This document shows positions 1,176-19,883 of a stretch of DNA of 26,231 nucleotides, in pieces (position 1 is the first letter of the stretch; every line of letters starts with the position of its first letter). Origin of the DNA: a virus (Duplodnaviria; Caudoviricetes); IMG/VR virus record IMGVR_UViG_3300012933_000298, positions 1 to 26,231 of that record, one strand, 5' to 3'. A program made the translations under genes and the position numbers. Under the pieces are notes generated by a model. That model saw only the letters and a program-made list of their open reading frames with translations. It had not been told where the DNA came from and made no database searches.

Positions 1176-1544
1176 AACTAAACCTTAGCAAAGTATCTTT
1201 AGCAATACCAGCCCAGCCAGAAGGCTCTCGAGGGAAGAGAATGGCTTAAGAATCAGACCACTCTCAAAAACCCAGCCATATAGGACTGTCGGGATTTGTT
1301 CATGGGTGAGGTCTTGCGATGCTCACAGTCTGCGCCAGAATAAACAGTTACAAGGCAACCAGGCAGACTCTATTGGAAGCACCGCTTATTCTCTGCTGTT
1401 CTCTCAACAGCTTTGCCCCGATCTACCGCTTCACCTATTTGCAGGGCGCGCGATATCGGCAGCCTCTAAAGCTCGATAACCGGCAGGGTGAGTGTCGGGA
1501 AGTTGACTTAGTGTCAGGCTAACAGGCGCTGCCCTCTGACAACC

Positions 1545-1553
1545 TGCTACACT
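1545..1553 (+). promoter_or_regulatory. Extended -10 promoter (TGCTACACT) for a short plus-strand antisense RNA
   Basis: TGn-TAnnnT consensus, followed about 30 nt later by a plus-strand terminator. Confidence 0.5.
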
Positions 1554-1559
1554 TAGAGA

Positions 1560-1620
1560 TGTCGGTTCTAAGTGTTTACAGGACTCCCCCAGTTGAATGG
1601 CTGGGGGATTTCTCTTTATT
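1560..1620 (+). ncRNA. Putative ~60-nt antisense RNA to the 5' end of the long RNA
   Basis: Bounded by the promoter at 1545-1553 and the hairpin at 1585-1608 with its T-rich tail. Confidence 0.4.
1585..1620 (+). terminator. Intrinsic terminator, plus strand
   Basis: TCCCCCAGTT-GAAT-GGCTGGGGGA (two G-U pairs valid on the plus strand) followed by TTTCTCTTTATT. Confidence 0.6.
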
Positions 1621-1631
1621 AAGTTGGCTCT

Positions 1632-1640
1632 ACTATAGCA
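1632..1640 (-). promoter_or_regulatory. Extended -10 promoter (TGCTATAGT) pointing into the non-coding region
   Basis: Near-consensus TGnTATAGT just downstream of the methyltransferase stop, with no ORF following for about 450 nt. Confidence 0.6.
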
Positions 1641-1648
1641 CCCTGTTT

Positions 1649-1679
1649 TTATCCACAGGATTCAACAGAGTTGTCCACA
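1649..1679 (+). promoter_or_regulatory. DnaA boxes
   Basis: TTATCCACA (1649-1657, canonical) and TTGTCCACA (1671-1679, actinobacterial consensus), same orientation and 22 bp apart, with a degenerate GATTCAACA between them. Confidence 0.65.
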
Positions 1680-2521
1680 AGCAGATCAGAACCCTCAAGC
1701 AGAATCCGCAAGGCCAGTTCAGCCTGTTGAGGAACAACACCATTACCGCAAGCCTTCAGCTGCTCATTGCGAGTCAGCCCAATCTCAGGGTCACAAATCC
1801 AGCCTTCAGGCAAGCCCATCATCCACTCAGTGAACCAGGGTGACAGCCGGTGAGCGCCCTCTTTGCCATCTGGCAGGGTTGGTGCAGGGGCAGGGCGATT
1901 CATAACCACTTCCCAGCGCCTAATGGCTGGCTCGAACTTGCCCCAGTTGGTCGAGTCTAAGACTTCAGTATTTAGAGGCTTGGTATTGCGATCGAACTGA
2001 CTAGGGCCGCCGGTGTTCTTAGCATCCTGAGTTGTTACAGTAGGCAGCAGGTCATTGACTACTGTTTCGCGGATATTGGCATAGCCGCCAGGTGTGCGCT
2101 CTTTGCTCTCGGCAATCTTCTCAGCACTTCTAGCTGGCAAGTGATCCATGGTGTTCGGGGTAGGCATCAAGCGAAGCACCTCGATGTCGAGGCTAGGGCC
2201 ATGACCATTGCCATTGCCATGCTTAGACTTCATCTTGTCAGTCCACTCATCCCACTGCTCGACAGTCTTGCCGCGCCCCATGTCATTGACTGCTGGAGTC
2301 GGCAACCCTTGTGGCAGTGATGAAAACTCGGAATCGGCTGTGAGGTGCGCCGGCATCGGAAGCGCGAACACTTGTCCATTTCGCATCATACCCGAGGTCT
2401 GCCAGGCTTCCGAGAACAGCTCCCAATGCTCGCAAAGAAGGCTCGCCATTGGCTTCTCCCATACACCACGGGCAGGATTCCAAATCTGAATGGGCTGTTG
2501 CGCTAAGTAGGCCTCGGACAT
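1649..2521 (-). CDS. C5-cytosine DNA methyltransferase, second subunit (target-recognition modules plus motifs IX and X)
   Basis: Three (L/M)PT(P/V)..D modules, then RLSPWFTEWMMGLPEGW and LKACGNGVVPQ. Start uncertain (TTG 2527 or ATG 2521); overlaps the first subunit in another frame. Confidence 0.8.
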   Translation of the reverse strand: MSEAYLAQQPIQIWNPARGVWEKPMASLLCEHWELFSEAWQTSGMMRNGQVFALPMPAHLTADSEFSSLPQGLPTPAVNDMGRGKTVEQWDEWTDKMKSKHGNGNGHGPSLDIEVLRLMPTPNTMDHLPARSAEKIAESKERTPGGYANIRETVVNDLLPTVTTQDAKNTGGPSQFDRNTKPLNTEVLDSTNWGKFEPAIRRWEVVMNRPAPAPTLPDGKEGAHRLSPWFTEWMMGLPEGWICDPEIGLTRNEQLKACGNGVVPQQAELALRILLEGSDLLVDNSVESCG

Positions 2522-15191: not shown

Positions 15192-15713
15192 ATGCAGACC
15201 ATTTACACCACCGACATCCTAGACAAGCCAGCCATTCACAGAAGCGGCGAGGATTTTGTTATCTATCAGCCGACCGCCCCATTCCTAGACTCGCATGGTC
15301 TAGTGGTTGCCCAGCTAATTCAATACACAGATGGCGAACTAGAAACCACCTCATACTATTCGCGAGGCTGGGCTTACTGGAACTTCTTAGACATCGAGGG
15401 TGACAACTTCGAGATTGCTAATGAAGCAATGGACACAGAGCGCTACCTATTCGGTGACATCGACATGACCATCTCATTTGCCAGTGAAACAGTCGAGCAG
15501 ATTGCCACCGACACAATCCCACACAGCAACCCATACTGGCAGATGCTAGTCCTTCGCCTCGCCTATGGTCAGATTACCAATGGCAAAGAGTTCAATGACA
15601 TCCTTGCCAACTCAAGCCACACCCCCGAGCAGATTCAGCGGATGCTAGACCTAGCCGCCGGTGCGATCCTGCAAGGAACAGAGTTGCGACTCACAGGACT
15701 CAAAACAATCTAG
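15192..15713 (+). CDS. Acidic hypothetical protein (moron)
   Basis: 173 aa with its own promoter, SD AAAGGGAG and terminator; opposite strand to the tail operon. Confidence 0.8.
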   Translation: MQTIYTTDILDKPAIHRSGEDFVIYQPTAPFLDSHGLVVAQLIQYTDGELETTSYYSRGWAYWNFLDIEGDNFEIANEAMDTERYLFGDIDMTISFASETVEQIATDTIPHSNPYWQMLVLRLAYGQITNGKEFNDILANSSHTPEQIQRMLDLAAGAILQGTELRLTGLKTI

Positions 15714-17611: not shown

Positions 17612-17628
17612 GCTTCTATTCTATCGCT
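17607..17628 (-). repeat. Leaderless promoter repeat, copy 2 (AGCGATAGAATAGAAGCATGGC)
   Basis: Matches 15077-15098; its TAG is also the stop codon of the upstream gene. Confidence 0.75.
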
Positions 17629-18055
17629 TGGCTAGTCTTGCCTTTATCTCGGTGCTAGAGATGCCAGCGGTGTAAGGAATATAAACAAGCCCGATGCCGC
17701 GCTCATCCAACCAGTCTTGGTCAAAGCCCATCTGGGTGTAGTAGTCGCGCCTTGCCCAGTCCGAACCAATCACAATCAGATCAGGCTTGACATACTCAAT
17801 GGCTGGCTTGCTATCTGCGCCACCGACATTAGGGATAACCTCATCAACCCATTTCAAGTGCATCAGTGCGGCAGCTCGCTCGGCATAATTCATGACTAGC
17901 CCCTTGCCCTTATAGGCGAGGATAAACTCATCAGTATTTAGAGCAACAGTTACCTTGCCATCTGGCCCTGCCAGTTCTCGGCACTTCTTCAGGAAGTCAC
18001 CATGCGCCCAGTGGAGGAGGTCAAAAGAACCGCCAGTATACACAGTTAATCCCAT
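17621..18055 (-). CDS. Cytidylyltransferase (TagD-like, HxGH family)
   Basis: YTGGSFDLLHWAH, ALNTDEF, ER, VIGSDW and YTAGISST motifs. Confidence 0.88.
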   Translation of the reverse strand: MGLTVYTGGSFDLLHWAHGDFLKKCRELAGPDGKVTVALNTDEFILAYKGKGLVMNYAERAAALMHLKWVDEVIPNVGGADSKPAIEYVKPDLIVIGSDWARRDYYTQMGFDQDWLDERGIGLVYIPYTAGISSTEIKARLAKR

Positions 18056-18699
18056 CGGTTTGCCCTTCTAGTCTTGAGAGTCCAGCCGCCTTGACTGAAA
18101 TCACCTTCGGCTTGCTTGTCATCGAACAGGCGCATATTCGCCCCGAAACTGCGATGGTTCATTTCCTGATAACCGCTGTTTAGGGTTGAGCTGTTGTCAT
18201 GATGAACAACCGCATCAATGGTTTTGATAGGCACACCATGGTGGCGCACTCGGCGCTCAAGGTCATTGTCATCATAGTAAAGCGGATAAAAGCGCTCATC
18301 ATAAAGCCCCACCTTGTCCACCATGCCCTCACCGAAAACAACCGCAGACCAGGCGGTGTTGATCTGCAGGAAGTTCAGAGCCTGAGTGTCCACCTCGGCG
18401 GCAATCTTCTCCAAAGCACCAGCCTCAAAATAGGCATCATCATTCACCAGAAGCCAGTAGGGGGCATAAGGGGTTGCCTTGATAATCAGATTCCAAGCGC
18501 CGACCAAACCCAGCCCAAAGGGCATCCTGAGAGTCCACAGGTGTTTAACAGAATCGGGCTTCTTAGGGGTGTAGCCGACCGAGCCAAGACCCGAGTTGTC
18601 AATGATGACCAGATGCTCGACAGGGTAATCAATCGAAGCAAGCAAGCGGTCAGCAAGGTCAAACCGCTTCAAGGTGCAGAAGCCGAGAACAGGAATCAT
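18046..18699 (-). CDS. Glycosyltransferase family 2
   Basis: VIIDN, AWN, LVNDD and GLYDERFYPLYYDDND motifs. Confidence 0.85.
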   Translation of the reverse strand: MIPVLGFCTLKRFDLADRLLASIDYPVEHLVIIDNSGLGSVGYTPKKPDSVKHLWTLRMPFGLGLVGAWNLIIKATPYAPYWLLVNDDAYFEAGALEKIAAEVDTQALNFLQINTAWSAVVFGEGMVDKVGLYDERFYPLYYDDNDLERRVRHHGVPIKTIDAVVHHDNSSTLNSGYQEMNHRSFGANMRLFDDKQAEGDFSQGGWTLKTRRANRWD

Positions 18700-19883
18700 T
18701 TGTTTAGCAAGCGACCGATAACCGGAAGCCAGTGCTTCTGCCAGACAGTTTCGACATCGAACTGTTTAGCGAAATCAACCGCAACCTGGCTAGTGCCTCG
18801 CTCGGCTTGGTAAGCCTCCTCAAGCGCATTGACAATCGAAGGAACTAGGGGAACTTGCCAGATAGCATTTTGCCCAGCATCCCACATAGGCTGCCCCTCA
18901 ACCATCCAAGAATCCTCACCCAGAAGGTCAGGGGTTGCACCCCAGCTAGAACCAATCACCCGAGTGCCACAAGCCTGAGCCTCGATGGTAGGGATACCAA
19001 AGCCCTCACCATAGGAAGGCGCAAGTAAGACATCCATCGCGCTGTAAAGACCAGCCAAGGTTTGCTGGCTCATGCCATAGCGGTAATCCACAAAAGGCGG
19101 AAACATGACAGCCTCTTTAGGAATCCCAAAAGCCTGAAGCATAGGAATCAACTGCCAACCGCCCTGAGTTCCCAGCGGATCGGTGTGCATATACAAGACA
19201 GCATCAGGGTGCTTCTGGCGGAAGATAGAGAAAGCCAGCAAGTTCTCGCTGAAAGCCTTGCGGTGAATCAACCCCGAAGCCTTATTAGCCGAAACCATCC
19301 CCACAACAAACTCATCCTTCAAGCCCATATAGTCGCGAGCAGGTTGCCCCTCAATGGTTGCAGTCGGCTTGTAAATCTTGGTGTCAATGCCATGAGGAAC
19401 ATACTCGCACTCAATGCCCTTAGCTTCCATCTGGCGAACACCATTCGGGGCCATAGCAATCGGGGTGACATGGCTCTGCCTTAGAAAAGCCTCAACCTTT
19501 GGAGGCATAGAAACATGGTCAAGCGGAGTCCACCAACCCATATTGATTTTCTCCCACTGCTTACCCTGAATCACCCAGCAGTCATAAAGACCGATAAGGG
19601 CATCAGGCAAGTTAGGGTGCTGGGCTTTGAAATGAGCATGGTGCATAGGGCCGACATCATTCGAGTAGGCTTCAGAACCGCGAGGGTAATGAGGGATGCT
19701 ACCGAACTTAGTCTGATAGGTGCTTAGGTTACCCTCAAGCCCATAGTTGGAAAGAGCCGCCACCTTAGCGCCATCGCGCTTCAAGCGGTCAACAAGGTAA
19801 CCAGCTTGTTGCCCATAACCTGTCGGCTGATCAGGCGAGTTAGACCAGACAGAAATAACACCATTGATTTTTGCTTTGCTCAT
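18696..19883 (-). CDS. Glycosyltransferase family 4 (GT-B)
   Basis: TGYG, VPHGID and PSYGEGFGIPTIEAQACG (EX7E) motifs. Confidence 0.9.
   Translation of the reverse strand: MSKAKINGVISVWSNSPDQPTGYGQQAGYLVDRLKRDGAKVAALSNYGLEGNLSTYQTKFGSIPHYPRGSEAYSNDVGPMHHAHFKAQHPNLPDALIGLYDCWVIQGKQWEKINMGWWTPLDHVSMPPKVEAFLRQSHVTPIAMAPNGVRQMEAKGIECEYVPHGIDTKIYKPTATIEGQPARDYMGLKDEFVVGMVSANKASGLIHRKAFSENLLAFSIFRQKHPDAVLYMHTDPLGTQGGWQLIPMLQAFGIPKEAVMFPPFVDYRYGMSQQTLAGLYSAMDVLLAPSYGEGFGIPTIEAQACGTRVIGSSWGATPDLLGEDSWMVEGQPMWDAGQNAIWQVPLVPSIVNALEEAYQAERGTSQVAVDFAKQFDVETVWQKHWLPVIGRLLNK

Follow-up and report, generated by a model that had tools for sequence, protein, structure and literature searches.

A pseudoknotted non-coding cassette in place of Rep and DnaB in small freshwater actinophages: a probable RNA-based origin and likely distant relative of the cluster A mycobacteriophage origins

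Introduction

How does a small tailed phage begin DNA synthesis when its genome holds no recognisable replication gene? The question is raised by a 26,231-nt contig (IMG/VR record IMGVR_UViG_3300012933_000298; Duplodnaviria, Caudoviricetes), called the window here, which is an entire virus contig rated 84% complete. An earlier note on this DNA, made from the letters alone, had pointed to a gap between a methyltransferase ORF (1649–2527) and a Cys/His-rich ORF (900–1175), at the place where a replication gene would normally sit, and had proposed that it holds an RNA-primed replicon resembling RNAII/RNAI of ColE1. According to the accessible text of PMC5043065, ColE1 replicates with no initiator protein, using a long structured RNA and a short antisense RNA to its 5′ end. 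A second precedent comes from cluster A mycobacteriophages, in which ~600-bp, ORF-independent transcribed regions by parABS support plasmid replication (PMC7157519, Wetzel 2020). In the main text of that paper, RNA origins are proven for RedRock, Alma, Gladiator, LadyBird and Et2Brutus; they act in the prophage only, and deletion phages grow lytically. In the literature that we searched, mostly without subscription papers, RNA origins in tailed phages occur only in Wetzel 2020 and in papers mentioning it.

Results

The gap and its genome

The gap is real: within 1178–1648, no start-codon ORF of at least 45 aa lies on the minus strand, which is the strand of the operon, and no open frame in or across the gap has a PHROG match. 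Upstream of it lies the DNA methyltransferase ORF (minus strand), which is exchangeable among relatives, and directly downstream the small Cys/His-rich ORF (minus strand), which forms the cassette boundary in element-bearing and Rep-bearing phages alike. Among the flanking genes named earlier, the C5 methyltransferase and RusA hold, but the 'SSB' and 'zinc finger' labels, for which PHROG and Pfam gave no match, derive from position and sequence features. The C5 methyltransferase is split across two overlapping reading frames (1649–2840), and the same split is seen in many relatives (L035, L039, L041, L049, L053, L075). Elsewhere in the window, a 173-aa plus-strand ORF with no PHROG family (15192–15713) lies within the minus-strand tail gene block, and one cytidylyltransferase-like and two glycosyltransferase-like genes lie between the capsid and head–tail genes (17621–19883), with homologues in most related genomes. 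Recombination genes (RecE-like, Erf) are present; no tRNA or tmRNA was found. The window encodes WhiB, from which the host is likely a member of the Actinomycetota, and, as no prophage copy of the element was found, it is known at this level only.

Searches of the window for a phrog_270 initiator, DnaB, Pol A and integrase were negative, which agrees with the earlier statement that no initiator, helicase or polymerase is recognisable there. To the caveat that such genes might lie elsewhere, two facts apply: the window is the whole contig, and in ten element genomes that are at least 90% complete, likewise no initiator, DnaB, Pol A or integrase was seen. Among 30 element-bearing virus records (10 at least 90% complete, three with terminal repeats), neither phrog_270 nor phrog_19 was found (0/30); phrog_270 was found in 13/13 Rep-type controls, and HTH_36 in 0/26 element records versus 13/14 Rep-type records. 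Pol A and tyrosine integrase were found in 0/10 near-complete element genomes, Prim-Pol in 0/5 element genomes and ParA (PF01656) in 0/5 complete ones. We clustered the ORFs of at least 90 aa from eight near-complete genomes into 128 clusters and, setting aside 28 that had been identified before or were judged structural, searched the 100 remaining representatives against PHROGs; no initiator, primase, helicase, polymerase or member of a ParA/ParB family was among them. Many of the scanned ORFs have no family at all; for this reason, and because ORFs <90 aa and 28/128 clusters were left out, an unrecognised protein initiator is possible.

A family of structured elements

The gap contains a conserved core of ~340 nt (1201–1545, minus strand), a candidate origin or primer RNA, with homologues in 37 other phage records at identities that fall to ~45%. 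The resulting family of 38 records, window included, was reached with added pattern scans, in which chance accounted for 7/15 metagenome loci and for 10/12 and 4/7 new loci in two later scans; 8/8 candidate loci from GTDB were judged chance and rejected. Pairwise identity goes down to about 42% (29 elements measured), and the window's element is 84–88% identical to that of L007. Outside the family, blastn of the elements of the window, L049 and L060 found nothing real in cultured phages, and blastn of the window had no match among 72,556 plasmids. The Rfam comparison proposed earlier returned no family at the gathering threshold in the window and ten related loci, and three sub-threshold matches (E 4–9) were dismissed as chance. 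Contigs over the core occur in four RNA runs (run labels X1, X2, X7 and X9, not to be confused with the repeat copies below), one 346-nt contig in X9 corresponding to 1214–1557. We do not count these contigs, which carry neither strand nor ends, as evidence of expression, because the runs were chosen by the window stretch, structural genes appear at like depth, and the X7 contig extends beyond both ends of the core.

The family, its fold and an RNA cassette in place of a lytic initiator are new to the searched literature, mostly without subscription papers. The accessible part of PMC10690425 refers to 29–151-nt candidates from IMG/VR in its supplements, and these may include pieces of this element.

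A double pseudoknot supported by covariation

The 'wall-to-wall hairpins' described earlier are a modest signal in one sequence (z −2.3 for the minus strand and −0.8 for the plus strand against shuffles) but a strong one with covariation. Across 25 aligned cores, the 39 named pairs are 89.7% paired, two-sided changes number 211 versus 67 in shuffled alignments and the covariation score is 0.58 versus at most 0.09 in slid controls, where the helices were derived from the same sequences and relatedness inflates the shuffle tests. These compensatory changes support a structure conserved in relatives, with several helices and a double pseudoknot.

Read along the minus strand, the core comprises a P1/P1b hairpin with an internal loop (1512–1541) and the hairpins P3 and P4 with the loop consensus GTYAGAG (1456–1498), the part most like the mycobacteriophage origins. 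At its centre is a double pseudoknot (1328–1392), in which P5 pairs 1384–1392 with 1337–1345, Pa lies inside P5 and pairs 1374–1380 with 1355–1361, and Pb, carrying a bulged C, pairs 1362–1368 with 1328–1336 and crosses both. Under a fixed rule, applied to a set that included eight elements outside the alignment, Pb forms 7/7 pairs in 32/33 elements and Pa at least 6/7 in 30/33 (control 10%). A last hairpin (1237–1265) lies between the two copies of a direct repeat.

Promoters, antisense leader and DnaA boxes

The leftward extended −10 promoter of the presumptive long RNA (TG-C-TATAGT, 1640–1632, minus strand) is in place, and identity with L007 starts at this motif; a consensus scan requiring a −35 found 0 promoters. 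In the opposite direction, an antisense extended −10 (TG-C-TACACT, 1545–1553, plus strand), whose offset to the A-tract is conserved, precedes a predicted terminator of GC hairpin and T-run (1585–1620, plus strand; stem 1585–1608), which is the A-tract and hairpin in the leader of the long RNA. Together they predict an antisense RNA of ~60 nt (1560–1620, plus strand) complementary to the leader. The motifs of the opposing promoter and terminator are thus present as the earlier note had them, the terminator being statistically weak alone (2 found versus 1.7 expected in shuffles). The antisense control module that it drew from them fares less evenly: the leader recurs in some relatives, three of 35 elements by script and by eye also L001, L003, L013, L022 and L060, but many family members are without it. 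With a −10 hexamer immediately ahead of the core in 20/35 elements, the leader with its antisense promoter and terminator is a module that the family can do without.

Leaders of the same make, with a promoter, an A-tract hairpin and a second hairpin, were also seen before Rep genes (L044 ~2240–2357, L070 ~1390–1498 and L077 ~990–1108), each with an antisense −10 seen by eye, which suggests that the replication slot has a portable module for antisense control. In L001 (2492–2620), as in L003, L013 and L022, leader and core are separated by a basic ORF of 42 aa, with a shorter variant in L008; in L001 the stop codon of this ORF and the core's −10 hexamer overlap, and the ORF has no match in cultured phages.

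The two DnaA boxes noted earlier are real and exact, but they are not part of the conserved element. TTGTCCACA (1671–1679) falls within the 3′-terminal part of the methyltransferase ORF and is not conserved in the family, and TTATCCACA (1649–1657) covers the leftward promoter's −35 region and may modulate this promoter; they are the only exact TTRTCCACA matches in the whole 26 kb. We rejected DnaA boxes as an origin component, the exact pair occurring in the window only, with a degenerate cluster in L021 and none in L007. In the window (1649–1679, methyltransferase) and in L021 (~1185–1220, Mom-like), the cluster sits at the 3′ end of unrelated genes and just before the same promoter.

Whether the fold acts as RNA is a separate matter, as covariation cannot separate RNA from single-stranded DNA, a caveat that applies equally to the plasmid motifs in the accessible text of PMC5737381. 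The structure could form in single-stranded DNA, as a single-strand origin or primosome assembly site with the RNA incidental, and the RecE-like and Erf recombination genes could expose such DNA. Against this stand a −10 hexamer 8–24 nt before the core in 20/35 elements (~20% by chance), the conservation of the antisense promoter and, in the main text of PMC7157519, transcription of the related mycobacteriophage origins on the same strand; we consider this reading very improbable.

A direct repeat flanks the last hairpin

The upstream copy X1 (1269–1278, minus strand) follows a conserved AGTCC and is family-specific; the downstream copy X2 (1210–1219, minus strand) follows a conserved CCCTC..GAGCC and marks the predicted neighbourhood of the RNA–DNA hybrid and start site. 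A direct repeat of 5–9 nt lies either side of the last hairpin in 25/25 aligned elements, and an exact run of at least 5 nt is present in 31/33 elements, one row (L036) being mis-registered. The repeat differs between subfamilies and matches within each (1/362,880 permutations for nine representatives), and an exact RNA complement of it within the core was found in none of the nine. Through the direct repeat, the RNA may be able to pair with template DNA again. Transitions in near-repeats are mostly upstream G or T versus downstream A or C (22 versus 4 in distinct rows), and 18/22 family-position events are in the wobble direction, the direction that would be tolerated if the upstream X1 of the RNA pairs with the downstream template strand; this is suggestive only, because one inherited G/A position supplies many events. 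In the 3′ part of the origins of Steamy (L163) and Phlei (L161), a short direct repeat around the last hairpin was seen by eye, with upstream T versus downstream C, the same wobble direction as in the freshwater elements.

The element and Rep/DnaB exclude each other in one slot

A relative whose downstream ORF is 96% identical to that of the window carries a replication initiator in the same place (phrog_9474, E 8e-36). We fetched 57 viral loci, some of them near-copies, by alignment of this downstream 'zinc-finger' ORF, and found the element in 24/57, a Rep initiator and/or DnaB in 33/57 and both in 0/57. An element homologue occupies the ORF-free gap at the slot in 21/57; in L080 and L082 it lies elsewhere in the locus (untrained matches, E 2e-22 and 2e-55), and in L081 it was predicted and then located further along the genome. 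The other 33 loci have no significant element-profile match within the locus, ~7 kb having been checked in most Rep-type records; a PHROG initiator is present in 32 of them and a DnaB helicase in 16, and the locus of L078 is cut, with DnaB only seen. An ORF of ~130 aa after Rep, without a family match, may be a helicase loader.

The exchange has occurred repeatedly. On a 48-row tree of concatenated Zn-finger, HNH and phrog_1389 sequences, from which 20 loci without a marker were left out, the element and Rep states need seven parsimony changes, at least four of them forced by starred branches. Flanks of an element locus (L060) and a Rep locus (L066) are 95–98% identical over most of their length, and between the window and L028 similarity picks up again at the downstream start codon. 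In L080, L082, L128, L136, L141 and L142 the element precedes other genes, and it is therefore not tied to one downstream ORF.

These placements bear on the reading in which the element has no part in initiation and is a small RNA or a regulatory leader, with replication by recombination or by an unrecognised small protein. That many ORFs have no family and that the element lies inside an operon would fit it; the strict exclusion with Rep over at least four switches and the six loci with other downstream genes do not, and we judge it quite unlikely. A different reading keeps the RNA origin but sees in it more than a simple primer: the pseudoknot would be a scaffold or catalyst that opens DNA, recruits the helicase of the host or carries out its own 3′-end processing. 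It draws on the replacement of Rep plus DnaB in 16/33 sister loci and on a double pseudoknot that, constant bulged C included, is more ornate than priming seems to need; yet 17/33 Rep-type sisters have no DnaB in the slot, which makes the use of a host helicase plausible anyway, and there is no Rfam ribozyme match. The helix order, we take it, differs from that of group I and HDV-type cores. We rate this reading as unlikely. The mutual exclusion with Rep/DnaB and the likeness to the proven mycobacteriophage RNA origins lend strong support to the idea that an RNA-based origin substitutes for the initiator gene.

Likeness to cluster A RNA origins

Like the cluster A origins, the element is an ORF-free, Rep-less cassette that is exchangeable with a rep gene. 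The order of parts is common to both: an A-tract/GC-hairpin leader, an antisense extended −10, P3, P4, a double pseudoknot with bulged C and a pyrimidine-rich 3′ end. The offset from the antisense TGnTAnnnT to the A-tract is 63–70 in 6/7 mycobacteriophage origins and 65–68 in the window, L007 and L021; 17 nt of P4 are identical between RedRock and L001. The mycobacteriophage origins have the same pseudoknot topology, with covarying P5 and Pa and a nearly invariant Pb.

Searches with nhmmer and blastn found no match between the element and the mycobacteriophage origins. A model (R1) built from P3–P4 of the freshwater elements only gave one match per genome in Alma, Gladiator and LadyBird, in each case inside the proven origin and on the right strand (E 0.1–0.7), and no genome-wide match in RedRock and none in ColE1. 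Run unfiltered over 83 kb, it placed 7/8 origin loci directly below the true member (E 0.06–1.1) and missed Ebony; the mycobacteriophage origins being mutually related, the R1 matches come close to one observation. The reciprocal model (R2) had a P4-only match in 5/21 element genomes, missed the window and gave five off-target matches, two with E <0.01. A descriptor, tuned on both families and loosened after its first version missed most freshwater elements, found the element alone in 8/10 element genomes, the origin in 4/4 mycobacteriophages with two extra sites in RedRock, and nothing in four Rep genomes or ColE1. The model E-values are each weak, and these results make distant homology of the element and the cluster A RNA origins probable rather than membership proven.

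The two differ in setting. Cluster A origins adjoin parABS, whereas the element genomes are without ParA (PF01656, 0/5), and the element occupies the slot of the lambda O-like initiator. The latter serve the prophage only, and Alma carries Pol A, whereas in the element phages no integrase or polymerase was found. Many members of the element family are also without the antisense leader, unlike cluster A origins. Two further genomes were noted in passing. The 90-kb Gordonia phage Daredevil (L159), which is not a cluster A parABS phage, has a mycobacteriophage-type RNA origin at 2500–2950 that follows an HNH gene close to the terminase; the 5 kb shown carry no parAB annotation. Ebony (L160, A11 type) has the common antisense leader, and its P3–P4 are absent by model and descriptor; it may represent a second, more distant RNA-origin class.

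ColE1 and other known systems

The scheme of ColE1 fits the element in outline: no element-encoded initiator was found, there is a candidate long RNA, and a short antisense to its 5′ end is predicted. The dimensions differ, with a core of ~340 nt (~420 with leader) versus 550 nt in ColE1, a predicted antisense of ~60 nt with one hairpin versus ~110 nt, and DnaA boxes upstream of the promoter in the window versus one downstream of the origin in ColE1. ColE1-family identity was rejected, as RF00106 (RNAI) was absent from the element though the control matched ColE1, and nhmmer, R1 and the descriptor were negative. A true RNAII/RNAI replicon captured by a phage would share this logic of no Rep, a long RNA and a short antisense to its 5′ end, and in ColE1 an AGTCC, a hairpin and a GAGCC were likewise seen by eye, in this order, immediately ahead of the origin; set against the negative searches and the absence of a blastn match among 72,556 plasmids, capture is extremely improbable. 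Of the earlier proposal, the RNA-based origin in place of a replication gene is strongly supported by the exclusion in the slot and the likeness to mycobacteriophage origins, but the kinship with ColE1 is not.

ARRPOF, GEBRO, PAGEV and HEARO are Rfam families. The element resembles the first three as a structured RNA of their size range (220–350 nt) tied to replication by context, and differs from them in having no Rfam match, in its hosts and in residing in a tailed phage rather than a plasmid (PMC5737381, accessible text). Like the ctRNA of pGA1 (RF00236), it has a predicted short antisense RNA with a GC-hairpin end upstream of a replication element; the RF00236 match itself (14.5 bits versus a 45-bit threshold, E 4.3, terminator hairpin only) is at chance level and was rejected.

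Discussion

A pseudoknotted non-coding cassette replaces Rep/DnaB in small freshwater actinophages, and we consider it likely to be an RNA-based origin related to those of cluster A. At lytic origins of T4 and T7, a transcript primes DNA synthesis; these phages encode their own replisome and are not known to need a large folded RNA. The element would resemble them in the transcript priming proposed here and differ in its large folded RNA.

ColE1 anchors its hybrid with a G-tract. The steps from transcription to helicase loading are proposed by analogy, being taken from the ColE1 scheme in the accessible text of PMC5043065, which calls the trigger of the persistent hybrid speculative even for ColE1. 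Host RNA polymerase would transcribe the element leftward from the −10 at 1640–1632, and the RNA would fold such that the last hairpin sets X1 beside X2. X1 could then pair with the template DNA strand at X2 and nucleate an R-loop. The RNA 3′ end, generated by a host RNase H cut or in some other way, would serve host Pol I as primer, and helicase loading would fall, as in ColE1, to the restart primosome of the host. For the window's subtype, we propose that primer output is adjusted by the ~60-nt antisense RNA together with the two DnaA boxes.

Given that searches for integrase, ParA and polymerase were negative, lytic replication would have to depend on the element, which appears to be the sole initiation module; the window's subtype may have a plasmid-like carrier state controlled by the antisense RNA. 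A more far-reaching version, which we offer tentatively and hold to be possible rather than likely, is that of a self-guided RNA initiator: X1 guides invasion at X2, the element is the sole lytic initiation device and swaps with protein initiator/helicase cassettes, and the same fold, recurring in mycobacteriophage prophage origins, unites all of them in a single widespread RNA-origin family of actinobacteria that is separate from ColE1.

The main text of PMC7157519 contains neither 'pseudoknot' nor 'secondary structure' (0 occurrences each) and gives no structural model; if the proposal is right, the element offers one for the mycobacteriophage RNA origins, with a double pseudoknot, an antisense module and a direct-repeat anchor. 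Its covarying repeat makes the question of the persistent-hybrid trigger testable by paired mutations, and new Rep-free vectors for actinobacteria are a possible yield. If true, the proposal would explain how DNA synthesis starts in many 30–37 kb freshwater actinophages without recognisable replication genes, and RNA and protein initiators would be exchangeable cassettes in one slot.
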